Shown: one piece after another, positions 3,084-20,193 of the stretch
How the letters are laid out: each line of letters opens with the position of its first letter
Numbering within the stretch: the stretch's first letter is position 1
Assembly (NCBI GenBank): GCA_913057715.1
Contig: CAJXOR010000001.1
Coordinates: 17,539-81,538, forward strand
Reading direction: 5' to 3'
DNA length: 64,000 nucleotides
Origin: an uncultured Moraxellaceae bacterium
GTDB lineage: Bacteria > Pseudomonadota > Gammaproteobacteria > Pseudomonadales > Moraxellaceae
Notes under the pieces: generated by a model
What the model saw: only the letters and a program-made list of their open reading frames with translations
Told to the model about the DNA's origin: nothing
The model's database searches: none
Made by a program: the position numbers and the translations under genes

Positions 3084-3658
3084 TGTGGATAATTATGTTT
3101 ATAGCTTTGCTCATAACTTGGGCAGAATCAGGGGGTTAAAAGCAACCATCAAATTATCCCCTGATCACCTCCCAACCTTAGGATTAAAAAGTAATCAGGT
3201 TATACACATGGTAAGATACTGAATCTTATATATTTTTATGATTTATCCTAATTTTCTACTGTCCCTTATCATCTTCAATCTTCTTTTTCTTTAAAAAAAC
3301 ATAAAGAGATGATTGATTGGTTTTCTCAAGATTTTCGGATTGTTAAGTACTTAAATTAAACTGGTTAATTTTTGATCAATAAGCAAATGTCAAGAAATCA
3401 TCTTTTTTCCAGACCATCTGGTTTTTTTCTTAAAACTATAAAAAATGGGCTTGAGGACAGATCTGTTAAAAGTTGTGGGTAAGTAGTGGATAAGCTGTGT
3501 AAAACTGAACAAGCTTAAGATGTTTTACAAAGATAAAGCATAGCTTTAATCTGAGTCAGATCTACTTATTGTTAGAGGTTTGGATCAATTATTGACCTTA
3601 GGATGGATTGGGTTAGTTACATACAAGTTGATTGAATCAGTTTTTTAACTGTGGATAG
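3084..3658. promoter_or_regulatory. DnaA-box cluster in the AT-rich dnaA-rpmH intergenic region (dnaA autoregulation and/or oriC candidate)
   Basis: Perfect TGTGGATAA (the reverse complement of TTATCCACA) at 3084-3092. 8/9 boxes at 3485-3493 (AGTGGATAA) and 3650-3658 (TGTGGATAG). A 7/9 box at 3243-3251. This is an 800-bp non-coding, very AT-rich spacer at the point where coding strands diverge. Confidence 0.6.
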
Positions 3659-4864: not shown

Positions 4865-5066
4865 AGCGCTCCGCCTAGCTAGATGCGAGTACCAAATTGA
4901 TAAAATGCGCACGCTCTCTGCTTGGTTTGCGGTGTCAAGCGTGGGCATTTTGCTGGGCTTTACTCAGGCTTAAGATCAAAGCGCAGCAGTTGGGAATCTG
5001 GCGTAAAAATTTAGTATCATGCACAGCATTTGCCAGCGCTTAAGCTGGCGCAAGCATAGGACAAAC

Positions 5067-6803
5067 ATGCAACCAATCAAACTGCTCAGGCTTTTGGTAC
5101 TGGCCGCGATCTTTGTGGTGGCTTACTTTTTGCTGCAAGCGTGGCGTAGCGACTATGTAATCGGTGCCTCCAGCGCCCCTGCCGCATCTGAACCAGCAGC
5201 CAATCTAGCGAGCAATCCTGCAACCATGGCCCCGCCAGCGACTGGCGCTCCGGTTACAGGCGCTCCTGCAAACGATGAAGCCAATCCGCTGGTGCCTGAG
5301 GCGTTTAATCCGAGTAGCGCTGCTAGCGGCGACACGGCAGCGAGCGCTCCTAATGCGGTAGTTTCAGGCAGTCTGATCACGGTGAACACGGATCTGTATT
5401 TGCTGCAGATTGATCCGGCTGGCGGCGATATCGTGTCGCTCAAATTAAAAAACTACACCACAGAGCTCGATAACAACGTGCCCTTCACGCTGTTTGAAAA
5501 CGACTCGCGGGTTTATAAAGCGGTCTCCGGCCTAAACGGCACCGACGGTATCGATGTCACCTCGCGCGCACCCTTCACCGCGCCGGCGCAAAACTTTGAT
5601 ATGGGTGAGGCAGGCGAGCTCATCGTGCCGCTCAGCTACACTGACGCGGCGGGCCGTGTGTTCACTAAGCGCTTTAGCTTTAAGCGCGGGGAGTACCCGA
5701 TTGATGTGTCTTATCAGATCAACAACCAATCAGATACTCCTTGGCAGGGCGGGTTTTATGCGCAATTGGTCCGCGACGCATCATCCGACCCTGGCATGCA
5801 GAACAACGGCTTTATGGGCCTCGCGACTTACCTGGGCGCTGCTTGGGGCACTGAAGCTGATCCTTACAACAAGCTTAAGTTTAAAAACTTCGGCGATGAC
5901 GCGATCAACTTATCCACCGACAGCGGCTGGATCGCCATGCTGCAGCACTACTTCTTAAGCAGTTGGTTGGTACCAAACGATACCCAAGCGCAGCTCTCCT
6001 CGAACCAGTCAAATGGCCTCTATGTCATGACCATGACGCTGCCGCAAACCACGGTTGCTCCTGGCACCATCGGTAGCATGGGTGCGACGCTTTACGCCGG
6101 TCCTAAGCTTCAGGACACGCTGGATCAGCTCAACCCTACTCTTGATCAGACCGTGGACTACGGTTTCCTTTGGCCAATCGCCAAGGTGATGTTTGAGATC
6201 CTGCAAAAGATCCACAGTGTGCTGGGCAATTGGGGTTGGTCGATCATCGTGCTGACCATCTTGATCAAGTTGGCATTTTTGTGGATATCGAACAAAGCCT
6301 ACCGTTCGATGGCGAAGATGCGCTTGATCGCTCCCAAGATGCAGCGCATGAAAGAAGAGTTTGGCGAGGACCGCATGCGCTTCTCTCAAGAGATGATGAA
6401 GCTGTACAAAGAGGAGAAAGTGAACCCGATCTCAGGTTGCTTGCCGCTTTTGATCCAGATGCCATTTTTCTTAGCGTTTTATTGGGTGTTGGTGGAGAGC
6501 GTGGAGCTCAGACATGCGCCGTGGATTCTGTGGATTCAGGATCTCTCGAGCATGGACCCTTACTTTATCTTGCCGATCTTCATGGGCGCGAGCATGTACG
6601 TGTCGCAGATGTTGAACCCGCAGCCAACCGATCCAACTCAGGCCAAGGTGTTTAAGATCCTGCCGATCATCTTCACTGCGTTCATGTTGTTTTTCCCGGC
6701 GGGTCTGGTGCTTTACTGGACGGTCAACAATCTGTTCACCCTGACTCAGCAGTACGTGATCAACAAGCAGATCGAAAAAGAGGCCGCCGCTCGCGAGGCC
6801 TGA
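5067..6803 (+). CDS. yidC: Membrane protein insertase YidC
   Basis: The C-terminal core NWGWSIIVLTILIKLAFLWISNKAYRSMAKMRLIAPKMQRMKEEFGEDR...GCLPLLIQMPFFLAFYWVL is typical of YidC. The likely start is MQPIKLLRL at 5067, although the ORF is open from 5019. An Ala/Pro-rich linker follows TM1. Confidence 0.95.
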   Translation: MQPIKLLRLLVLAAIFVVAYFLLQAWRSDYVIGASSAPAASEPAANLASNPATMAPPATGAPVTGAPANDEANPLVPEAFNPSSAASGDTAASAPNAVVSGSLITVNTDLYLLQIDPAGGDIVSLKLKNYTTELDNNVPFTLFENDSRVYKAVSGLNGTDGIDVTSRAPFTAPAQNFDMGEAGELIVPLSYTDAAGRVFTKRFSFKRGEYPIDVSYQINNQSDTPWQGGFYAQLVRDASSDPGMQNNGFMGLATYLGAAWGTEADPYNKLKFKNFGDDAINLSTDSGWIAMLQHYFLSSWLVPNDTQAQLSSNQSNGLYVMTMTLPQTTVAPGTIGSMGATLYAGPKLQDTLDQLNPTLDQTVDYGFLWPIAKVMFEILQKIHSVLGNWGWSIIVLTILIKLAFLWISNKAYRSMAKMRLIAPKMQRMKEEFGEDRMRFSQEMMKLYKEEKVNPISGCLPLLIQMPFFLAFYWVLVESVELRHAPWILWIQDLSSMDPYFILPIFMGASMYVSQMLNPQPTDPTQAKVFKILPIIFTAFMLFFPAGLVLYWTVNNLFTLTQQYVINKQIEKEAAAREA

Positions 6804-6935: not shown

Positions 6936-7224
6936 TTATCCCGAGCTATCCATCAATTAATCACAACTAACCCGCAGAGTTAACCTCAGATTTATCCACA
7001 GCTGGGACGGACTAATTTGATGATTGGTCATATGAGCTTAAGTTGTTCTGGTTCAATGCTCAGCTTATCCCGGAGTTATCCGCAGGGTTATACGCGCAAG
7101 ATTTTAAGTTATCCACAGTCGGTTGAGATATCCACCGAGTATGATCAGCTTATTTACTGCTTATACCTCGGTTATCTATTAGATATACCTAAGTTATCAC
7201 TGGTTTATCCAGTGCTTATACCCA
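6936..7224 (+). promoter_or_regulatory. Phased array of DnaA-box-like 9-mers (oriC candidate) between yidC and mnmE
   Basis: Perfect TTATCCACA boxes at 6992-7000 and 7109-7117. Same-orientation variants start at 6936, 6946, 7065, 7076, 7088, 7128, 7150, 7161, 7172, 7183, 7194, 7205 and 7216. The last seven are spaced exactly 11 bp apart. An AT-rich tract at 7225-7345 follows. Confidence 0.65.
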
Positions 7225-7384
7225 GATTGTCCTCAATCTAACTTATTAAAAAACAACATAATTATTGGTTTATCCTCAGATAAAAAGACATTTTACTCAA
7301 TAAATAAACCGCGCTCATAAACGATCTATTTTTAAAAACCAGCATGAGGATAGATTTGCTAGCATGGCGCTATCAAGTGGAGCT

Positions 7385-8755
7385 ATGGATAACTTTGTGA
7401 ACACTTCTACCATCGCCGCGATCGCAACGGCGCAAGGGGCAGCCGGAGTGGCAATCGTGCGCTTAAGCGGGCCGCGCGCACTGGCGATTGCCTGTGAGCT
7501 AAGCGGCAAGGTCGATCTGCAGCCTAGACAGGCGGTGTACGCGCGGGCGCTGGCTAGCGATGGCTCGCTGATTGATCAAGGGGTGCTGATTTACTTTAAA
7601 GCGCCAAACTCCTTTACCGGAGAGGAAGTGGTCGAGTTTCAGGGGCATGGCGGGGTGCAGCTCCCAAGACTGGTGCTGGCGCGCTGTTTTGAGCTTGGCG
7701 CCGTGCAGGCGGGGCCGGGTGAGTTTTCCGCGCGCGCTTATCTGAACAACAAGATGGACCTGCTGCAGGCAGAGAGCATCGCCGATGCGATCCACGCCAG
7801 CTCTGAGGCTGCCGCGCGGGGTGCTGTGCGCTCGCTCTCAGGTGAGTTCTCCTCACGCGTCGATGCGCTGCTCGCGGATCTGATTCACCTCAGGCTTTAT
7901 GTGGAGTCCTCCATCGATTTTCCTGATGAGGAAGGGGTGGAGTTTTTGGGGGATCAGCAGTTAAGCGGGTTGCTGGGTAAAGTTGAAGTTGATCTTGAGT
8001 CGCTTGCGCGTGCGGCCAAACAGGGGCAGCTGCTCAGAGACGGGGCGAATCTGGTGATCGCCGGACTCCCAAACGCCGGTAAATCTAGTCTGCTAAACGC
8101 ACTGGCCGGAGTCGATCGGGCGATAGTGACCTCTGAGGCTGGTACCACGCGCGACGTGCTGACTGAGCACCTGCTCATCGATGGACTGGCTTTAAATGTC
8201 ACTGATACCGCAGGGCTGCGCGACACCGACAACTTAGCTGAGCAAATCGGTATCGAGCGCGCTCGCGCGGCGATCCAGGCGGCGGATCTGCTGCTGGTGG
8301 TGTTTGATGTCACCCAGATCAGTGATCCCTTTGCACACGCTCAGGCGCTGCTGCAAACTGATACGGAGACTGAGTTCGATCCCAGCCGCCTGCTGCTCGT
8401 AGCCAACAAAGTAGATCTGCTCGAAACCAACCCGCATAACCAAGATCAGAACCTGCTCAGTATCTCAGCCAAACATGGCGCGGGTCTGGATAGACTGAAA
8501 AATGCCATCCATGAACGCATCGGTTTTGATCCGCAGCCTGACGCTCTGATCGCGCGCACTCGCCACCTAGATGCGCTGCTCAGAGTCTCTGGGTTTGTGG
8601 AGGAGGCGCGGACGCAGCTTAGCATTTACGCCTCAGGTGAGCTTGCTGCTGAAAGCCTGCGCCTTGCTCAAGAAGCGCTCTCAGAGATCACCGGAGAGTT
8701 CACCTCAGATGATTTGCTGGGTGAGATCTTTGGCTCGTTTTGTATCGGCAAGTGA
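7385..8755 (+). CDS. mnmE: tRNA modification GTPase MnmE (TrmE/ThdF)
   Basis: N-terminus TIAAIATAQGAAGVAIVRLSG, G-domain GLPNAGKSSLLNAL and DTAGLR, and the conserved C-terminal FCIGK*. The likely start is MDNFVN at 7385, although the ORF is open from 7364. Confidence 0.95.
   Translation: MDNFVNTSTIAAIATAQGAAGVAIVRLSGPRALAIACELSGKVDLQPRQAVYARALASDGSLIDQGVLIYFKAPNSFTGEEVVEFQGHGGVQLPRLVLARCFELGAVQAGPGEFSARAYLNNKMDLLQAESIADAIHASSEAAARGAVRSLSGEFSSRVDALLADLIHLRLYVESSIDFPDEEGVEFLGDQQLSGLLGKVEVDLESLARAAKQGQLLRDGANLVIAGLPNAGKSSLLNALAGVDRAIVTSEAGTTRDVLTEHLLIDGLALNVTDTAGLRDTDNLAEQIGIERARAAIQAADLLLVVFDVTQISDPFAHAQALLQTDTETEFDPSRLLLVANKVDLLETNPHNQDQNLLSISAKHGAGLDRLKNAIHERIGFDPQPDALIARTRHLDALLRVSGFVEEARTQLSIYASGELAAESLRLAQEALSEITGEFTSDDLLGEIFGSFCIGK
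8725..8753 (+). repeat. Left direct repeat (att-like) in the mnmE 3' end
   Basis: 28 of 29 nt are identical to 18050-18078. Confidence 0.85.
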
Positions 8756-8924
8756 ATATGAAGTTTAATGAAGCTGAGACAAGAGTAAATTATTTTAAGC
8801 TGAGCTATTTTCTAAGTTTGAATTTTAAAAAAGATCACATTATTTGTATAAGATGAAATAGCAAAAATTAATCAAAAGTGAACTTAACCCAGCATTTTTG
8901 CTTCAGAGAGTTTGTATATTGAAA

Positions 8925-11900
8925 ATGATCGATAACATCAACTCCCTTTTAGGAGATGACCTGAAAAAAAGTATCAAGCCGGATATTCGCTTGATGATCG
9001 CTGCGTCCAGCTTTTCTATTTATGCATTTGAAGCACTTAAAAAAGAGCTATCGAAGGTGGACAGCCTGCAGTTCATATTTACTGCCCCAACCTTTATACC
9101 AACCGAAGTGACTGATCGCCCTTACAAAGAACGGCGTGAGTTTTTTATCCCAAAGGCACGTCGTGAAAGTGGCCTATATGGAACCGAGTTTGAAATTAAG
9201 CTGCGCAATAAGCTGACGCAACGAGCGGTAGCGCGCGAATGTGCTGATTGGATCCGGAAGAAGGCGAAGTTCAAATCGAATACGTCTAAGGCGCCTATGC
9301 AGCAATTCATACATATCGACAGCTCTGCTGAAGGCATCGCCTACATGCCCATCAGTGGCTTCACCGCAGTCGATCTTGGCTACCAAAAGGGCGATGCCGT
9401 TTCCAATTTTGTGACGAAGTTTGACGACCCAAACCACGCACAGATATATCTTCAACTTTTTAATCAGATCTGGGCAGACCCAGAGAAGGTCAAAGACGTC
9501 ACGGACGCGATCTGTGATCATATTGAGTCTGTCTATCAAGAGAATTCACCCGAGCGAATCTATTTCATGATGCTTTACAATATTTTTCAGGATTTTCTGG
9601 AAGATATCGACGAAGACGTGTTGCCAAATGATTTGACGGGCTATCAGGATAGCCTCGTCTGGAACAAGTTGTTCAATTTCCAGAAGGATGCGGCAACCGG
9701 CATCATCAATAAGCTTGAGACCTACAACGGCTGCATTCTGGCTGACAGCGTTGGCTTGGGGAAAACGTTCACAGCGCTTGCTGTCATCAAGTATTATGAG
9801 CTTCGTAACCGTTCTGTCTTGGTACTATGCCCAAAGAAACTCGCAGACAATTGGCTTAACTACAACACCAACCTGACCACGAACATTTTTGCTAAAGATC
9901 GTTTTAACTATGATGTCCTCTGCCACACAGACCTATCGAGGACTTCGGGCGAGTCATTTGGGATGCCTTTAAACCGGATAAATTGGGGCAATTACGATCT
10001 CGTTGTGATCGACGAGTCCCATAACTTCCGCAACAACGACGTCTACAAGGATCGCGAGACCCGCTACCAGAAGCTGATGAACAAGGTCATTCGCGCTGGC
10101 GTGAAAACCAAAGTACTCATGTTGTCGGCCACGCCTGTAAATAACCGTTTCACCGATCTTCGCAACCAGCTTGCCCTCGCATATGAAGGCCAGTCTGAAA
10201 GCCTAAGCCGTAACTTGAAGACCGACACGAGCGTTGAAGAGATCTTCAAGCGAGCTCAGAAAGCCTTTAACAGTTGGTCGCTACTGCCCCCGGATGAACG
10301 AAACGCTGCGTCGATCCTTAAGGCGCTCGATTTCGACTTCTTCGAGCTTCTCGACGCTGTCACGATTGCCCGCTCGCGCAAGCATATCGAGACCTTCTAC
10401 GACACCAAGGACATCGGTAAATTCCCTCAACGCCGTAAACCACTGTCCTACCATTGCCCTATTACCCATCGTGACGATGTGATGGGGCTGAACGAGATCT
10501 TTGAACAGCTCTCGGTCCTCAAGCTGTCTGTTTACGCACCAATCAGCTACATCCTTCCAAGCCGCCTGCGGAAGTACGAAGAAATCTATGACACCCTAGT
10601 CGAAGGGGGACGTGGCAAGCTGCGTCAAGCTGACCGTGAGCGCAGTCTGCAAGCTTTGATGACAACTAACTTACTTAAGCGTTTGGAGAGTTCGGTTGAA
10701 GCGTTCCGACTTACTCTGCGCGCCCTCGCTGCAAACATATCACGGACGCTAACAGCGATCGGTGAATTCGAGCGATCCAGCGGCACGCAAAGCGTCAGTG
10801 ATTACTTGGCTGATGTTGAAACACTGGACGCTGAAGATGACGAACTTGAGGGCTTGAGTGAATTTACGGTTGGCAAGAAGGTTCAGATCAGCCTCGCAGA
10901 TATGGATTTACCGTCTTGGAAACAGGATCTTCAGGCCGATCTTATTCTGATAGACGATCTGGTCGCTTCTATGGACAAAGTCCGACCCGAGGACGATGCC
11001 AAGCTCCAGCACTTACAAGATATTATTACCCGTAAAGTTGGCGCGCCAATTAACCCGGGAAATAAGAAAGTGCTTATCTTTACGGCGTTCGCGGACACGG
11101 CAAACTACCTCTTTGCAAACCTTGCCCCTTTCGCAAAGGATCTCGGGCTGCACACCGCAAAGGTAACTGGCTCGGATTCACCGAAGACCACTCTCAAAAA
11201 AAGCTATGATTTCCAGGGCGTCTTGACGTTGTTTTCACCTCGCTCGAAGGATAAGGACGTCATCCTGCCGGACGAACCAGCAGAGATTGATATTTTGATT
11301 GGCACGGACTGTATCTCAGAAGGCCAAAACCTTCAGGACTGCGACTATCTGATCAACTACGACATCCACTGGAACCCAGTGCGAATCATCCAACGCTATG
11401 GGCGCATCGACCGTATTGGCTCACCGAATTCCCAGATCCAACTGGTAAACTACTGGCCTGACATTTCGCTGGACGACTATATCAACCTCAAAGAGCGTGT
11501 AGAAAACCGGATGGTGATCGCCGATATGGTGGGTACCGGTGACGACAACGTGCTGACGGCAAAAAGTGGTGACATCGCCTACCGAAGGGATCAGCTCAAG
11601 CGCCTGCAGGAAGAGGTCATCGATCTTGAAGACGTCAAGACCGGCGTCTCGATCACTGACCTTGGTCTGAACGATTTCCGGATGGATCTGCTGAACTACG
11701 CCAAGCAGCACGGCCAGCTTAACAACCTGCCAAACGGCATGCATGCCGTGGTGCCAGCGCAAGCCCAAATGGGGCTCCGTCCCGGCGTAATCTTCGCGCT
11801 GAAAAACATACACGATACCGTGAACATCAACCAGCAAAACCGGCTCCACCCCTTCTATCTGGTCTACATCGCCGACGACGGAGAAATCATCGCAGACCAT

Positions 11901-12203
11901 ACCGAGGTCAAGCGCCTGCTCGACCTGATTCGGACCAGCTGCAAGGGCCGTGAGGTCCCTGTCCCCGACGTCTGCCGCACGTTCAACGAGCGCACCGAAG
12001 ACGGCCGCAAGATGGAGCATTATTCCGGTCTGCTAAGCGCGGCGATCCGCTCCATGATTGAGGTGAAAGAGGAAAAGGATCTCGACAGCCTGTTCAGCGG
12101 TGGTCGAACGACCGCGCTGACCCACACCATCGCCGGGCTCGATGACTTCGAGCTGATCGGATTCATAATAATTGAGCCAGCGATCGATGATAGCGTCGCA
12201 TGA
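8925..12203 (+). CDS. SNF2-family (SWI2/SNF2) helicase-related ATPase with an unassigned ~260-aa N-terminal domain
   Basis: Motif I ILADSVGLGKTFTALAVI, motif II DLVVIDESHNFRN, motif III LMLSATPVNN, and C-terminal helicase motifs TDCISEGQNLQDCDYLINYDIHWNPVRIIQRYGRIDRIGS. The likely start is MIDNINS at 8925, although the ORF is open from 8898. Confidence 0.9.
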   Translation: MIDNINSLLGDDLKKSIKPDIRLMIAASSFSIYAFEALKKELSKVDSLQFIFTAPTFIPTEVTDRPYKERREFFIPKARRESGLYGTEFEIKLRNKLTQRAVARECADWIRKKAKFKSNTSKAPMQQFIHIDSSAEGIAYMPISGFTAVDLGYQKGDAVSNFVTKFDDPNHAQIYLQLFNQIWADPEKVKDVTDAICDHIESVYQENSPERIYFMMLYNIFQDFLEDIDEDVLPNDLTGYQDSLVWNKLFNFQKDAATGIINKLETYNGCILADSVGLGKTFTALAVIKYYELRNRSVLVLCPKKLADNWLNYNTNLTTNIFAKDRFNYDVLCHTDLSRTSGESFGMPLNRINWGNYDLVVIDESHNFRNNDVYKDRETRYQKLMNKVIRAGVKTKVLMLSATPVNNRFTDLRNQLALAYEGQSESLSRNLKTDTSVEEIFKRAQKAFNSWSLLPPDERNAASILKALDFDFFELLDAVTIARSRKHIETFYDTKDIGKFPQRRKPLSYHCPITHRDDVMGLNEIFEQLSVLKLSVYAPISYILPSRLRKYEEIYDTLVEGGRGKLRQADRERSLQALMTTNLLKRLESSVEAFRLTLRALAANISRTLTAIGEFERSSGTQSVSDYLADVETLDAEDDELEGLSEFTVGKKVQISLADMDLPSWKQDLQADLILIDDLVASMDKVRPEDDAKLQHLQDIITRKVGAPINPGNKKVLIFTAFADTANYLFANLAPFAKDLGLHTAKVTGSDSPKTTLKKSYDFQGVLTLFSPRSKDKDVILPDEPAEIDILIGTDCISEGQNLQDCDYLINYDIHWNPVRIIQRYGRIDRIGSPNSQIQLVNYWPDISLDDYINLKERVENRMVIADMVGTGDDNVLTAKSGDIAYRRDQLKRLQEEVIDLEDVKTGVSITDLGLNDFRMDLLNYAKQHGQLNNLPNGMHAVVPAQAQMGLRPGVIFALKNIHDTVNINQQNRLHPFYLVYIADDGEIIADHTEVKRLLDLIRTSCKGREVPVPDVCRTFNERTEDGRKMEHYSGLLSAAIRSMIEVKEEKDLDSLFSGGRTTALTHTIAGLDDFELIGFIIIEPAIDDSVA

Positions 12204-12907
12204 CAGGCTTCTTCGACTATCCCAAAAGCGCTGCCTTCGGCCGGGTTCTGCCCAAGAACAAGATCTACGAACACGCAGGCGCAAACACTGCCCTCAAGGA
12301 TCTGTTCGTGCGTGAGGTCGATCAGATCGTCTGGCGCTACAAGCTCGCGCCAGAAACGATCAACCTGAGCGCTACCAAATCGGTGGCCGAAATTCAGATC
12401 TTCAGCATCTCGCTGAAAACCGGCAAGCTGGACGAGACCGTTCTGCGCGCCATAGATAAGGCTATACCGTTTCCCCTGATCTTCGAGTTGAGCCATGGCG
12501 GCAAACGCAGGGCCATGGCGGCCTACAAGCGGCCGAGCGAGGCCGACAGCGCGAAGTGGGTGATCAGCGAGTACTTTGCCACCAACTGGGTGGCCGATAC
12601 CGCCGCCAGGTCGCCCCTGCCGGTCGCGCTCAACCTTGGTGGGCTTTATGACGCGCTTCTGTCCGGCTTGATGCCACAACAGGTTCAGGCGGCACCCGGA
12701 CAGAGCGCGGAAGACATACAGATCCGTGTCGAGCGGATGGAGGCGATCCGCGCCAAGACGCGAGATGTTGAACGGATCAAGGCGCGGCTGGCGCGCGAGA
12801 AGCAATTCAACAAGCGCGTGGCGATTAACGCAGAGCTGCGCGAAGCGAAATTGGAACTAAAACAGCTCACCGGGGCAAAGGCCCCGATGAGCGCACCGAG
12901 TGAATAA
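12200..12907 (+). CDS. DUF4391-like protein with a C-terminal coiled-coil, function unknown
   Basis: 235-aa ORF whose ATG overlaps the SNF2 stop (ATGA at 12200-12203). From memory, the N-terminal region FFDYPKSAAFGRVLPKNKIYEHA...IVWRYKLAPETINL...IPFPLIFEL resembles DUF4391 family members. The C-terminus is charged and heptad-like (RVERMEAIRAKTRDVERIKARLAREKQFNKRVAINAELREAKLELKQL). Confidence 0.7.
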   Translation: MTGFFDYPKSAAFGRVLPKNKIYEHAGANTALKDLFVREVDQIVWRYKLAPETINLSATKSVAEIQIFSISLKTGKLDETVLRAIDKAIPFPLIFELSHGGKRRAMAAYKRPSEADSAKWVISEYFATNWVADTAARSPLPVALNLGGLYDALLSGLMPQQVQAAPGQSAEDIQIRVERMEAIRAKTRDVERIKARLAREKQFNKRVAINAELREAKLELKQLTGAKAPMSAPSE

Positions 12908-12914
12908 GAGGACG

Positions 12915-14855
12915 ATGAGCATGGATAAGATGAAACTGCATAGCCCCGACCTGAGCCAGGACAACATCGCCAAGATCCGCGCTCTGTTCCCCGGCTGCGT
13001 GACCGAGGCATCCGATGACAATGGCAAGCTGCGGCTGGCAATAGACTTCGATCAGCTGCGCCAAGAGCTAAGCGACCACACCGTCGAAGGTGGGCAGGAG
13101 AGGTATCGGCTGGATTGGCCCGGCAAGCGGGAAGCGATGGCGCTTGCGAACGCTCCCATCGCAAAAACGCTTCGCCCCGCACGGGATGAAAGCGTAGCTT
13201 TCGACACCACCCAGAACCTCTTTATCGAAGGCGACAACCTTGAGGCCCTGAAACTGCTGCAAGAAACCTATCTTGGCAAGGTCAAGATGATCTATATCGA
13301 CCCGCCTTATAACACGGGGAATGACTTTGTTTATGATGATGATTTTGCCGAGAGTTCGGCCGAATTTCTAGAACGCTCGAACCAGAAGGATGGTGAAGGC
13401 AATCGAATGGTTGCAAACACAACGGCCAATGGGCGCTTTCACTCCGACTGGCTTACGATGATGTTTGCAAGACTGCGACTGGCAAAAAATCTGCTCACGG
13501 ACGATGGTGCGGTGTTTGTCAGCATAGATGATAACGAGTCTGATAGCTTGATCAAAATAGGTCGAGAGATTTTTGGCGACGAGAACTTCGTCGCGCAATT
13601 GGCTGTTCAGCTTAACCCTCGAGGACGACATCTTGATCGTTTCATCGCCAACACTCATGAGTCTGTCGTTGTCTTCGTAAAGGACGGACTTAATTCCAAC
13701 TGCATTGGCGGGCTGGAAAAAGAAGGAAGAATGGCCGATGAGTACAACAGAAACGACAGTGATGGAGCGTTCAGGCTGCTTGGCCTCAGGAACCGAAACC
13801 AAGCCTTCAATCCAACCACTCGGCCGAACCTCTACTATCCCTTATATGTTTGCCCAAAAAATGGGCTGATATCTTTGATCAATGACGAACTGTTTACTGA
13901 TGAAGTTTGGCCAGATACCCCCGATGGGATTAAGACCTGCTGGACTTGGGGTAGAGAAAAAGTCTCCAAAGAAGGTAGCTTGCTACTTGCAGAAAAATCT
14001 GGAGGCGAATGGAGGATATTCCGAAAAGACTATCTTAACAAGAATGGTGAAGTCACTAAGACGATGGCTAAGTCGCTCTGGGCCGAAAAGGAAATTACGA
14101 ACGACTATGGCCGGTCTTCAGTCAAAGACCTTTTTGGCAAGGCAGTTATGGATTTCCCAAAATCGCCAGCTTTGCTGGAGCGGCTCGTAAAGATAGGTTC
14201 CAATGAAAATGACCTTATATTGGATTTTTTCGCAGGCTCATCATCAACGGCACATGCGATACTATCGACTAACGCTCGAGAAGGATGTCATCGCAGATTC
14301 ATAATGGTTCAATTGCCTGAATCTACGTCAGCAGGCTCAATAGCCCGACAAGAGGGCTATGAAACCATTTCCGAGCTATCCAAGGAACGCATTCGCCGCG
14401 CGGGTCAAAAAATCCTTGAATCGGATTGTCACACCGACTGGAACAAGGACGTCGGTTTCCGTGTCCTGAAGATCGACACGTCGAACATGGAGGACGTCTA
14501 TTACCGTCCTGACGAAGTCAAACAGGCTGACCTGCTTACCGCCGTCGACAATGTCAAACCGGACCGCACGGTCGAAGACCTGCTTTTTCAGGTGCTCGTG
14601 GACTGGGGCGTCGACCTGACGCTGCCCATCCGCCGCGAGACCGTCCAGGGCAAGACCGTGTTCTTCGTCGACGACAACGCGCTGGTCGCATGCTTTGACA
14701 CTGGCATCACCGAGGATCTGGTGAAGGAGCTGGCCGGGCATGAACCGCTGCGCGTCGTCTTCCGCGACAACGGCTTCGTCTCGGATGCGGTGAAGATCAA
14801 CGTCGAACAGATCTTCCGCCAGCTCTCCCCCACCACCGATGTTAAATCGATCTGA
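12915..14855 (+). CDS. mod: Type III restriction-modification methyltransferase (Mod), beta-class N6-adenine MTase
   Basis: Motif [21 protein letters not shown] precedes motif [15 protein letters not shown], with a variable region between them (the TRD position). ATG at 12915 follows AAGAGG; an alternative GTG lies at 12900. Confidence 0.92.
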
Positions 14856-14865
14856 GGGGAACAGC

Positions 14866-17800
14866 ATGTCAGGCGCCATGAAGTTTAAGTTCAAAGTCCA
14901 ACCCTATCAAACCAATGCTGTCGACGCCGTCGTGGACTGTTTTGCCGGTCAACCTTATGTCAGTGGCATCAACTATCGGATCGACCCCGGCCGCAAGGCA
15001 CAGACCAGCGCCTTCGAAGAAGGCTTCAAGAACGCCGATATCTCGTTGAGCGAGGCGCAGGTGCTTGCGAACGTCCAGGGTGTGCAGCGAAGCCAGAACC
15101 TGCCTTTCAGCGAAAGCCTGACCGACTTCACCGTAATCAATGGGCGTGGCGAGCGGACACCAGCGCCAGCGACCTATATCCGCGACGCGCTGGCGGCGAG
15201 CCGCTACCACCTAGACGTCGAGATGGAAACCGGCACTGGCAAGACCTATTGCTACATCAAGACTATCTTTGAGATGAACAAGCGCTTCGGCTGGTCGAAG
15301 TTCATCATCATGGTGCCCAGCATCGCCATCCGCGAAGGCGTCTACAAATCGCTTCAGATCACGGCTGACCACTTCACCGAAAGCTACGGCAAGAAGGCAC
15401 GGTTCTTCATCTACAACTCAAAGCGTCTGCATGAGCTGGAAAGCTTCTCGTCGGACGCTGGCATCAACGTGATGGTCATCAATATTCAGGCCTTTGCTGC
15501 CCGCGGTGCGGATAACCGTCGCATCTACGACGAGCTCGACGACTTCCAATCCCGCCGCCCCATCGACGTGATCGCCAGCAACCGGCCGATCCTGATCCTG
15601 GACGAGCCGCAAAAGATGCAGGGAAACGCGACGATGGAAGCGCTGCCAAAGTTCAAGCCGCTGATGGTCCTACGCTATTCGGCGACCCACAAAACCCAGC
15701 ACAACAGGATCCACCGCCTGGACGCCTTGGACGCCTACAACCAGAAGCTAGTGAAGAAGATCGCCGTACGCGGCATTCAAACGCGCGGTCTGGCCGGAAC
15801 CAATGCTTACCTCTACCTTGAGGGGATCGACATCTCGAAGAAGGCGCCGGTCGCCCGGATTGAGATGGAGGTGAAGCTGAGATCCGGCGAAATCAAACGG
15901 CAACTTCGGCGGCTGGAATTTCGCGACGACCTGTTCACGCTTTCCGGGGAGCTGGATCAGTACAAAGGCTTCACGATCTCTCAGATCGACTACAACCACG
16001 ACACGGTGGAATTCACCAACGGCGAGGTGCTTACGGCTGGCAAGGCCACAGGTGACGTGTCAGAGCACGACATCCGGCGGATCCAGATCCGCGAGACTAT
16101 CAAAGCTCACTTGGATAAGGAAAAGCAGCTCTTCGCTCAAGGGATCAAGGTCCTTTCGCTATTTTTTATCGATGAGGTGGTTAAGTACCGCGACTACGGC
16201 CAGCCGGATGATAATGGAGAGTACGCCCGTGTTTTTGAGGAAGAGTACGAACTTTTAAAGAGCGAGTATCTCTCAGAGCTCGCTATCGACAACGAGGCCT
16301 ACCGAGCGTATCTCGCGGCGATTGACGCGACAAAGACTCATAATGGCTATTTCTCTATCGACAAAAAAACCAAACAGCTAAAGGATCCCAAAGTCGGTAA
16401 GCGAGCTGTCGATTCAGACGACGTAGATGCTTATGACCTTATCTTAAAGGACAAGGAGAGCTTGCTGACGCTACCAATGCCTTCAGACAGTGCCGATCAG
16501 CGCGCCAAAAAAGAGGTTCGATTTATCTTTTCCCACTCTGCGCTACGTGAGGGATGGGATAACCCCAATGTCTTTGTTATGTGCATGTTGAAGCACAGCG
16601 ATAACATGATCTCTAGGCGACAAGAAGTGGGTCGGGGTTTGAGGCTTTCGGTTAACCAGCAGGGTGACAGAATGGATCACTCGGCGACGGTTCATGACAT
16701 CAATGTTCTCACGGTGATCGCGAGCGAAAGCTATAAGGACTTCGTGGGCGGACTTCAAAAAGAAATTGCAGAGACCTTATCTTCACGACCCCGGCAGGCC
16801 ACCGAGGCCTACTTTACCGGCAAGACCGTTAACACCAATGCAGGCCCTATTGAAATCACGCCTGCTATGGCGAAGCAGATCTACAGGTACCTCGTTAAAA
16901 ATGACTACACGGACGACGCTGATCAAATCACTGACGACTATCACAAGGCAAAGGAAGCGGGTACGCTGGCTGAACTGCCAGATGAATTGAGGCCGCATGC
17001 CGATCAGGTATTTGAACTTATTGACAGCGTGTTCAGCGATGCACAGCTGCCTAAGGTTGACGATGGGCGAAAACCAAAAACTAATCCTCTTAACGCCAAC
17101 TTTGAAAAAAAGGAGTTCCAGGAGCTCTGGTCCCGGATCAATCGGAAAGCCGTCTATCGCGTGGACTTCGACTCAGTTGAATTAGTTCGAAAATGTGTCA
17201 GCGCTCTCGATAGCCAGCTCCGCGTGACGCCGCTCCAATATACCGTTCAAGCAGGCATTCAGGCAGATGAGATGACTGACGACCAGTTAAAAGCTGGTGA
17301 CGGTTTCGAGGTGACTACCACTTCCACTCAATACGGTGATTCGGTATTCTCCAGAGTCAAATATGACTTGGTTGGCAAGATCGCAGAAAGCTCTAAACTC
17401 ACACGCCGATCAACCGCCGAAATCCTTTCGGGCTTACAGGCTGTTGTCTTTGCCCAGTTTCAGCAGAATCCGGAGCACTTCATAGCAGAGGCTATAAGAC
17501 TTATAGCTGAGCAGAAGGCGACGATGATCATCGAGCGTCTGAGCTATGACGAGATCGACAATCACTACGATGTCGATATCTTCACTGCTAGTCAGACCGG
17601 TCAAGATTTTTCACGCGCAAGCGCAAAGTTAAAAAAGCACGTCTATGACTACGTTGTCACCGACTCAAACGTCGAAAAGCGGTTTGTGGCAGAGCTGGAT
17701 ACCAGTTCAGAAGTGGTTGTTTATGCGAAGCTTCCTCGCGGTTTTCTGATCCCAACGCCAGTTGGAGACTACAATCCTGACTGGGCAATCTCTTTTAAGA

Positions 17801-17997
17801 ATGAGGGCGTGAAGCATATCTATTTTGTAGCTGAAACCAAGGGCTCGATGTCAACGATGAAGCTACGTGAGATCGAGAAGACCAAGATTGAGTGCGCCAG
17901 AAAGTTTTTTAAAGAAATTGGACGGAAGATCTCGCAAGATAAGGTGAAATATGAGGTGGTCGATAATTACTCTCGTCTTGTCGATATCATCAGATGA
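14866..17997 (+). CDS. res: Type III restriction enzyme Res subunit (helicase plus PD-(D/E)xK nuclease)
   Basis: Motifs [24 protein letters not shown] and LRYSATH, the C-terminal helicase region [18 protein letters not shown]...QEVGRGLRL, and nuclease YNPDWAISF...[11 protein letters not shown] at 14866 follows GAGGGGA; the ORF is open from 14839. Confidence 0.92.
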
Positions 17998-18049
17998 AAA
18001 AGATCTACTAAAAATTAATTGATTAAACTCCTCGCGTTTTACTCTTTAG

Positions 18050-18078
18050 GATCTTTGGCTCGTTTTGTATTGGCAAGT
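18050..18078 (+). repeat. Right direct repeat (att-like), a duplicated mnmE 3' end
   Basis: 28 of 29 nt are identical to 8725-8753. In the mnmE frame it encodes IFGSFCIGK followed by TAG. Confidence 0.85.
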
Positions 18079-18214
18079 AGTAGCTGTGCTTTTGTAGCCG
18101 GTAGGTAAGGTGGATGAGCTGCACTTGAATTAAACAGCAAGTCGGCGGATTGAATCTTCAGCTGATTTGATCAGCCAACTGAGTTGATACGCTTTAATTG
18201 ATAGGACTAAGATC

Positions 18215-18814
18215 ATGAAATTTACCAACACCCCCAACCGCGAAGTGACCACCACGGATGGCGAGCGCCTGCATGTGTCGCGCTCGGTTGCGGTGGTGGC
18301 TCAGGTGTTTGTTTTCCATGTTGCCAGTCAAAGTTGGTTGATCTTGCTTGGCGAGCGCGGTCAAGGGGTAGACGATTTTCACGGTCAGTGGTGTTTTCCT
18401 TGTGGGTATCTGGACTGGGATGAGACGCTTTATGAAGCCCTGATTCGTGAGGTCTGGGAGGAAACTGGCTTAAGTCTGCCCAAGCTTAGAAACCATGAGC
18501 ACACCCACCACTGGATCGATGCGGCGCTGGAACCTGAGGGCGGAGTCGCCCCGCGCAAGGTGTCAGCCGAACCCAGCAACAACCGCCAAAATGTCTCGGC
18601 CAGCTTTGCCTGCTGGCTCAGCTGGTATGGAGAGGAGCTGCCAACGCTTAGTCTTGATAACATGGAGATGGATGAGGCTACCGATGCCCGCTTCCTGTCT
18701 TTAGATGAGGCGCAAAAGCTGGGTCTCGCGTTTAACCACAATCAGGTGCTTCAAGAGCTGCTAACTCATGAGAAGCGGCGCTTTAGGCAGATTGAGGCTA
18801 GCGTAGGCATTTGA
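18215..18814 (+). CDS. Nudix hydrolase
   Basis: Intact Nudix box GYLDWDETLYEALIREVWEETGL (Gx5Ex7REUxEExGU). Confidence 0.85.
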   Translation: MKFTNTPNREVTTTDGERLHVSRSVAVVAQVFVFHVASQSWLILLGERGQGVDDFHGQWCFPCGYLDWDETLYEALIREVWEETGLSLPKLRNHEHTHHWIDAALEPEGGVAPRKVSAEPSNNRQNVSASFACWLSWYGEELPTLSLDNMEMDEATDARFLSLDEAQKLGLAFNHNQVLQELLTHEKRRFRQIEASVGI

Positions 18815-19620: not shown

Positions 19621-20193
19621 ATGAGCGCATCAGTTAAGTCAGTCCTGCCGCTGAGCTGGTTTGAGCGCTCAGCAAGCTGCGTGGCACGTGATTTGATCGG
19701 GTCGTATCTGTGTAGCGCTGAGCCCGGCGTGCGGCTCCTCATCACCGAAACCGAGAGCTACCCGGGTCCTCATGAGCAAGCGACTGCGCTGCACCTAACG
19801 CGGCGGCGTCACAGCGAGCAGATGAAAAGCCGCGGCGGAGTTTGGTACGTCTATCCGGTTTACGGAGTTCACCTGATGCTGAACCTGGTAACCGGAGCCG
19901 CAGGCGAGGCGCAGTCGGTGCTGATCCGCGCAGCTTTTGATCCAGCAGCTGAAGCTCATAAGCTATGTGCGGGCCCTGCCAAGCTCAGTAACTACTTAAG
20001 CGTCAGCAAGGGATTGAGTGGTCAGCCGATCACGCCTGAATCAGGCCTGTGGATTGAGCGCGGTGAGCTGATTGGTGATAAAAGCTTGAGCATCGGCAGT
20101 CGTATCGGTATCGACTATGCCGGAGCGGACGCGGCGCTGCCGCTGCGCTTTGGACTGAAAAACCACCCCTCGCTGTCTAAAAAGTTCACTTAA
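19621..20193 (+). CDS. mpg: DNA-3-methyladenine glycosylase (Mpg/AAG family)
   Basis: ARDLIG...ITETESY...GGVWYVYPVYGVHLMLNLV...SVLIRA...GPAKLS matches the Mpg family pattern. Confidence 0.85.
   Translation: MSASVKSVLPLSWFERSASCVARDLIGSYLCSAEPGVRLLITETESYPGPHEQATALHLTRRRHSEQMKSRGGVWYVYPVYGVHLMLNLVTGAAGEAQSVLIRAAFDPAAEAHKLCAGPAKLSNYLSVSKGLSGQPITPESGLWIERGELIGDKSLSIGSRIGIDYAGADAALPLRFGLKNHPSLSKKFT

Follow-up and report, generated by a model that had tools for sequence, protein, structure and literature searches.

A probable site-specifically integrated, integrase-less defence island in the last codons of mnmE of an uncultured Moraxellaceae bacterium

We analysed a 64-kb stretch of DNA from an uncultured Moraxellaceae bacterium (the window; coordinates are window positions unless a locus label is given), in which an operon with a Type III restriction-modification system lies directly behind mnmE (also trmE or thdF), enclosed by two copies of the 29 nt at the end of that gene. 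This segment is probably a site-specifically integrated defence island at the trmE/mnmE hotspot that has no integrase of its own, of the type called a cis-mobilizable element (CIME). Conservative site-specific recombination between a chromosomal attB and an attP that mimicked the mnmE tail, of the kind carried out by tyrosine integrases, would have brought the island (8754-18049) into the final mnmE codons, leaving a 29-nt attL/attR pair and an intact mnmE frame rebuilt from island DNA. It most likely derives, in minimal form, from an island that bore an integrase or from the cargo region of an integrative and conjugative element (ICE), and its persistence would now be passive, with homologous recombination in the conserved flanks as its main way of spreading within the genus. 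As it stands, such a pared-down mobile island at a familiar landing site is real but fairly ordinary, the sort of decay product that one would expect.

A repeat of the mnmE tail bounds the restriction operon

The two copies of the repeat were identical at 28 of 29 positions, the sole mismatch being a C in the first copy and a T in the second at repeat position 22. The repeat spans the end of mnmE and the initial base of its stop codon, with the FCIGK codons inside, and the second copy still translates as IFGSFCIGK followed by TAG. When up to three mismatches were allowed, 8725-8753 and 18050-18078 were the only matches in the window, and none of 100 dinucleotide-preserving shuffles of the window yielded two. 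A preliminary description of this DNA had reported the recurrence of the mnmE tail with one mismatch and its reading kept, and this observation was confirmed; the question it raised, whether the 29-mer is a common repeat, was answered within the 64 kb by the same two copies. The C-terminus encoded by the intact mnmE showed no differences from those of relatives.

Between the repeats, the 9.3-kb segment holds four open reading frames (ORFs), each overlapping the next, which encode an SNF2-family helicase, a DUF4391 protein, a Mod methyltransferase and a Res subunit (Table 1). The operon promoter probably lies within the left arm, 8754-8924. Mod and the Res helicase/endonuclease stand in one operon with overlapping genes and match Type III models end to end; the SNF2 helicase and the DUF4391 protein are putative accessory components, as in other Type III systems with accessory genes. 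No functional study of DUF4391 was found, the papers with the term among those listed giving passing mentions. Judged from these domains, the cargo most probably serves to restrict phage or plasmid DNA entering the cell, with Mod protecting the host.

Searches of the island with Pfam, PADLOC and NCBIfam matched only SNF2, DUF4391, Mod and Res, and found no integrase, excisionase, relaxase or transposase domain. Neither inverted terminal repeats nor any int/xis remnant or pseudogene debris were seen in the island. Since it consists of the four ORFs and of arms of about 170 and 52 nt, it has no room for an integrase. ORF and domain searches thus agreed with the earlier statements that the 9.3 kb holds only the SNF2/DUF4391/Mod/Res operon and AT-rich ends, and that integrase, excisionase and mobilisation genes are absent from it. 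In the rest of the window, 25 mid-sized ORFs matched 33 families, and Phage_integrase was absent among the best 25 of these.

The presence of a direct repeat, and nothing more, would also fit duplication of the target site by a transposase or a casposase-like enzyme, or an assembly artefact. Known target duplications measure 2-15 bp for DDE transposases and casposases, and 29 nt is far longer; the island has neither a transposase nor inverted terminal repeats. An artefact is contradicted by the junctions, which were reproduced in independent assemblies from several studies. We consider an origin of this kind extremely improbable. A Xer/dif-type insertion (integrative mobile element exploiting Xer, IMEX) was also considered and put aside: by eye, the repeat seemed to have no dif-like dyad symmetry, and it lies near the origin, not the terminus.

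The uninterrupted site in sister lineages

Against named genomes, of which Moraxellaceae were the nearest, the host MnmE reached no more than 57% identity and the host DnaA about 50%; by these proteins the host belongs to a deep-branching and isolated lineage of uncultured, marine, Moraxellaceae-like bacteria. The 90% cluster of the host MnmE contained sister lineages with about 96% identity at the protein level and about 88-90% at the DNA level. Exact look-ups of three sister MnmE variants gave 13 loci (L093-L097 and L100-L107) from several independent metagenome assemblies. In all 13, mnmE ends with TAG and is followed by a spacer of 133-134 nt and then by the Nudix gene and downstream genes as in the window. 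The alignment was colinear with mnmE to 8753 and then with the window from 18079 onward, the spacer matching 18081-18214. The preliminary description had named such a site, mnmE joined directly to the flank near 18079 in relatives lacking the four genes, as its decisive check, and these loci supply it. Because three sister lineages have mnmE directly before the Nudix gene, the 9.3 kb between the repeats is, on this comparison, a true insertion. All contigs of the host's own lineage carried the island with identical junctions, and the recurrence of these junctions in independent ENA, JGI and Logan assemblies ruled out an assembly chimera.

A scan of genome contigs with MnmE returned distant genomes only (at most 57% identity), none with a second mnmE tail within 10 kb, and is uninformative for the empty site. 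One locus that seemed to have a different Nudix neighbour (L006) was set aside, as it is in fact the same island with N gaps.

The empty sites bear on where the strands may have been exchanged. Repeat position 22 is C in all three sister lineages, and one locus (L106) is identical to the window attL copy at 29 of 29 positions. If the ancestral attB had C, the data fit a T in attR derived from attP and a crossover in the last 7 nt (GGCAAGT); if the attB of this lineage had T, they fit a crossover to the left of position 22. Under both readings it is the island that would supply the end of the mnmE frame and the TGA stop. Moreover, the attP copy shares the synonymous codon choices of the genus, unlike the 80 other taxa examined, and these codons therefore suggest that the island had been resident in the genus before.

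Comparison with known trmE islands

SGI1 lies between imperfect repeats of 18 bp, of which the right one (DRR) is the last 18 bp of thdF/trmE, that is attB, and the left one (DRL) comes from attP; its Int and Xis genes lie where the element has its 5' end (PMC3285670). MGIVchHai6 has attL TTCTGTATTGGGAAGTAA and attR TTCTGTATTGGCAAGTAA, with int beside trmE (PMC4958241), and its relatives in marine bacteria carry mainly restriction and anti-phage cargo (PMC7449626). Over the 18 att positions the window attR reads TTTTGTATTGGCAAGTAG and agrees with MGIVchHai6 TTCTGTATTGGCAAGTAA at 16. The repeat covers 16 of the 18 published SGI1/MGIVchHai6 att positions and extends 13 nt further upstream.

The island is thus like the SGI1 family (SGI1, PGI1, AGI1) in occupying the last trmE/mnmE codons between imperfect direct repeats, with the frame completed across the left junction (PMC3285670). 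Unlike SGI1, it has no Int/Xis genes next to the left junction, no backbone (replication, mpsAB/oriT, traNGH, sgaCD) and no resistance integron, and it measures 9.3 kb compared with about 42 kb. For SGI1-family elements, helper plasmids of the IncA/IncC type set off excision and mobilisation. With the MGIVchHai6-family islands (found at trmE, yicC and dusA) it shares the target site, the restriction-modification/anti-phage cargo and an occurrence in marine bacteria (PMC4958241, PMC7449626). Those islands place their defence cargo between an int gene on the trmE side and convergent xis and mobI genes on the opposite side, and they have AcaCD-controlled promoters; int, xis, mobI and such promoters are all absent here. 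Since the target site is shared and the other defining features are absent, we did not place the island in either family. The preliminary description had placed it at the SGI1-type hotspot: the insertion site in the mnmE 3' end at the published att position stood, and sharing this site does not make the island a member of the SGI1 family, of whose backbone it has nothing.

The likeness to CIMEs is closer. A CIME keeps both att sites and has lost its integration and transfer genes (PMC6323972). Like the CIMEs among streptococcal ICE derivatives and in ICEberg 2.0, the island is flanked by attL and attR, carries accessory cargo and has no integration or transfer genes. It differs from described CIMEs in its marine gammaproteobacterial host and its mnmE target, and no cognate ICE or integrative and mobilizable element, by whose integrase a CIME could be mobilised in cis or in trans, is known for it. 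Read as such an element, it would extend the trmE/mnmE landing site known from SGI1 and MGIVchHai6 to a deep-branching uncultured marine Moraxellaceae-like lineage.

Origin of the cargo operon

The DUF4391 protein falls into a 90% cluster with a protein of Rhodophyticola sp. (Alphaproteobacteria), to which it is 93% identical. In Rhodophyticola the same four genes lie in a conjugative element (L098/L099:5888-17816), between traG/virD4 and trbB-trbC-virB3, with a WYL/BrxR regulator gene before the operon that overlaps the SNF2 start and a GmrSD-type gene after it. The operon DNA of the window and of this ICE was 88% identical over 8920-13464 and 14350-17970; homology ran from the SNF2 start codon to about 27 nt before the Res stop, and the Mod specificity region was unrelated. 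Because the DNA is 88% identical to an alphaproteobacterial ICE, compared with about 50-57% for the host MnmE and DnaA against named genomes, the operon is by this measure foreign to the host.

Scanning metagenomes with the SNF2 protein yielded 80 loci (55-84% identity), and most of them had the order SNF2-DUF4391-Mod-Res. Among 144 flanking ORFs (about 40 of the 80 loci), WYL/BrxR was found 7 times and Phage_integrase 5 times, along with conjugation, transposase and partition genes. The closest relative of the cassette (L111) has an integrase, a WYL gene and then the cassette, its target site lying off the contig; the DNA of this integrase had no match in E. coli genomes. The WYL/BrxR regulator that precedes the module there and in the Rhodophyticola ICE is missing from the window island. 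The mnmE-tail motif was absent from all 80 metagenome loci and from the two ICE loci, and the closest DUF4391 relatives (P0164, 98.7%) were on short contigs that break off before the island ends. Since some of the four-gene loci stand beside integrases and conjugation genes and none has an mnmE tail, the operon is, as far as these loci tell, common cargo of mobile elements, and the mnmE position is particular to this lineage. One defence operon is thereby seen in three settings, as cargo of an alphaproteobacterial ICE, beside an integrase and as a bare att-flanked cassette, which helps to trace how such modules move.

Variation at the site and mode of spread

Polymorphism was examined in Logan contigs of four runs, of which X3 and X4 are biofilm metagenomes. 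Both contained an island variant about 97% identical to that of the window at the same attL, with a different Mod specificity region and an unchanged right end (17552-18079). In this variant the Mod part 13075-14430 is replaced; the Rhodophyticola copy differs over 13465-14349. The pattern looks like target-recognition domain swapping between Type III mod alleles.

In X4, a 269-nt mnmE contig stops at repeat position 21, and its last 30 nt recur in two others, of which one leads with C into the island and the other with T through the repeat into a window-like right flank (1 mismatch in 158 nt). The X3 island contig stops right at 18079, where a flank contig of about twice its depth takes over. 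These paths are a hint, no more than suggestive, that alleles with and without the island occur together in nearly identical backgrounds. Deletion between the repeats would likewise leave an empty allele of the T type.

Two further sequences were found at this place. At L191:3563-5404, and likewise in L192 and L092, a 1.84-kb segment stands in place of the entire mnmE-Nudix spacer, with no flanking repeat; it has three small ORFs, for a DUF4124 protein, a zinc-ribbon-like membrane protein and a lipoprotein. Homology returns 1 nt before the Nudix ATG, and the MnmE of these loci is within 1-2 residues of the protein of the L093 group (P0123). One X3 contig continues past the mnmE stop (window 8755) with TTTAAATTAAAAATACATTTTAAATCAGCA, which is unlike the island, the empty site and the 1.84-kb segment, and could represent a fourth configuration here. 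By these comparisons the mnmE-Nudix junction is a variable spot in the genus, filled by more than one route.

Such variation raises the question of whether any site-specific event took place in this lineage. The spacer contents could instead have been swapped by homologous recombination or transformation, the repeat being imported ready-made or by gene conversion. The repeat-less 1.84-kb state and the other downstream sequence in X3 are what such swapping would produce, and the closest named relatives of the host, the Moraxellaceae, include naturally transformable members. Swapping accounts for spread, but not for a frame-restoring 29-nt repeat exactly on the trmE att position, and an integration event in the genus is still required. 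We regard it as very unlikely to be the whole explanation.

Another possibility is that the cassette is still active, being excised and integrated in trans, through sites in the AT-rich arms, by a trmE-specific tyrosine integrase from elsewhere in the genome or from a visiting element. Such a non-autonomous cassette would never have needed its own integrase and would be akin to an integron cassette or to the satellite of a helper island. Several features agree with it. The att pair is matched at 28 of 29 positions even though island variants differ by about 3% and have different Mod specificity domains; both arms are short, AT-rich and kept, the right end being identical in the variant; occupied and apparently empty alleles occur behind one X4 mnmE sequence; the island has no int/xis debris; and the attP-derived repeat with the codon choices of the genus would imply earlier cycles there. 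Set against these, no integrase was found among the mid-sized ORFs of the window (within the best-matching families given above) and no attP junction was seen in the contigs. Moreover, the arms resembled none of about 180 loci compared, no cassette family with such arms is known, and selection on the MnmE C-terminus suffices to keep attL intact. An active cassette is therefore unlikely in our view, though a serious possibility. Its wider form, an undescribed system in which an integrase acting in trans captures, excises and exchanges defence operons bounded by mnmE-tail mimics at the mnmE stop, seems decidedly doubtful. If mobilisation in trans were true, mnmE would be an integron-like docking site for defence genes across phyla.

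We therefore favour a passive remnant of a site-specific integration that spreads by recombination in its flanks. Several points weigh against this preference. Site-specific recombination is read from the anatomy of the island, and a recombinase was identified nowhere. The lack of any int/xis remnant makes an integrase that was lost indistinguishable from one that the island never had; the preliminary description had named loss of the recombination module and mobilisation in trans as the alternatives. The repeat is 29 nt, compared with 18 nt in SGI1, and takes in a single stop-codon base, the first, at its end. The empty-allele paths in X3 and X4 are unphased, come from k-mer contigs (k=31) laid over a 29-nt repeat and have low depth. 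Finally, neither an attP or circular junction (right arm/core/left arm) nor skipping joints were found in the Logan contigs of the four runs, which drop rare forms.

Neighbouring genes and the replication origin

The mnmE gene belongs to the dnaA-rpmH-rnpA-yidC-mnmE cluster, and the island is near the origin by reason of this location and not of any property of its own; a gene-dosage benefit of that proximity is possible. Matches to the DnaA box were enriched in the window (23 observed and 9.3 expected). Two clusters of them stand apart and are both origin candidates. The one at 6992-7278, about 1.5 kb from the island start, has, within 290 nt of the plus strand, two perfect TTATCCACA boxes and two more with one mismatch each; the other, at 3084-3658, lies in the dnaA-rpmH spacer.

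Table 1. Features of the island, its boundaries and the adjacent chromosome (window positions)
Feature	Position	Strand	Remarks
attL-like 29-nt copy	8725-8753	+	GATCTTTGGCTCGTTTTGTATCGGCAAGT; C at repeat position 22, then GA of the TGA stop
Left arm	8754-8924	+	about 170 nt, 25% GC, non-coding
SNF2-family helicase	8925-12203	+	alternative TTG start at 8898; Pfam SNF2-rel_dom, Helicase_C; PADLOC C3a139 'HKD+Snf2' 4.8e-128
DUF4391 protein	12200-12907	+	Pfam PF14335 3.4e-60; overlaps both neighbours
Type III Mod methyltransferase	12900-14855	+	PADLOC MTase_III 1.9e-216; target-recognition part about 13465-14349, variable
Type III Res (helicase and C-terminal endonuclease)	14839-17997	+	PADLOC REase_III E=0; Pfam ResIII, RE_endonuc 2.2e-35; NCBIfam PRK15483 5e-109
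Right arm	17998-18049	+	52 nt, 27% GC, non-coding
attR-like copy	18050-18078	+	GATCTTTGGCTCGTTTTGTATTGGCAAGT; T at position 22, then AG of the TAG stop; continues into the original downstream DNA
Original mnmE-Nudix spacer and Nudix gene (chromosomal right flank)	18079-18814	+	colinear with the DNA right after mnmE in empty-site relatives L093-L107
mnmE (trmE/thdF), target gene	7364-8755	+	intact, FCIGK-TGA end; Pfam TrmE_N, MMR_HSR1, MnmE_helical
dnaN	356-1510	minus	
dnaA	1650-2978	minus	
rnpA and yidD			present in the window
yidC	5019-6803		
DnaA-box cluster, oriC candidate	6992-7278	+	yidC-mnmE spacer; context only

Downstream of the right flank, a methylpurine-DNA glycosylase gene (window 19621-20193, and L001, L003 and L100) is predicted to encode 190-193 aa in some relatives and 105-108 aa in others, a gap between strains that could be due to a frameshift or to a difference in start site. 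A second methyltransferase, outside the island, was indicated by a match to the N6_N4 DNA methylase family (2.2e-24) in one ORF within 24146-63991.

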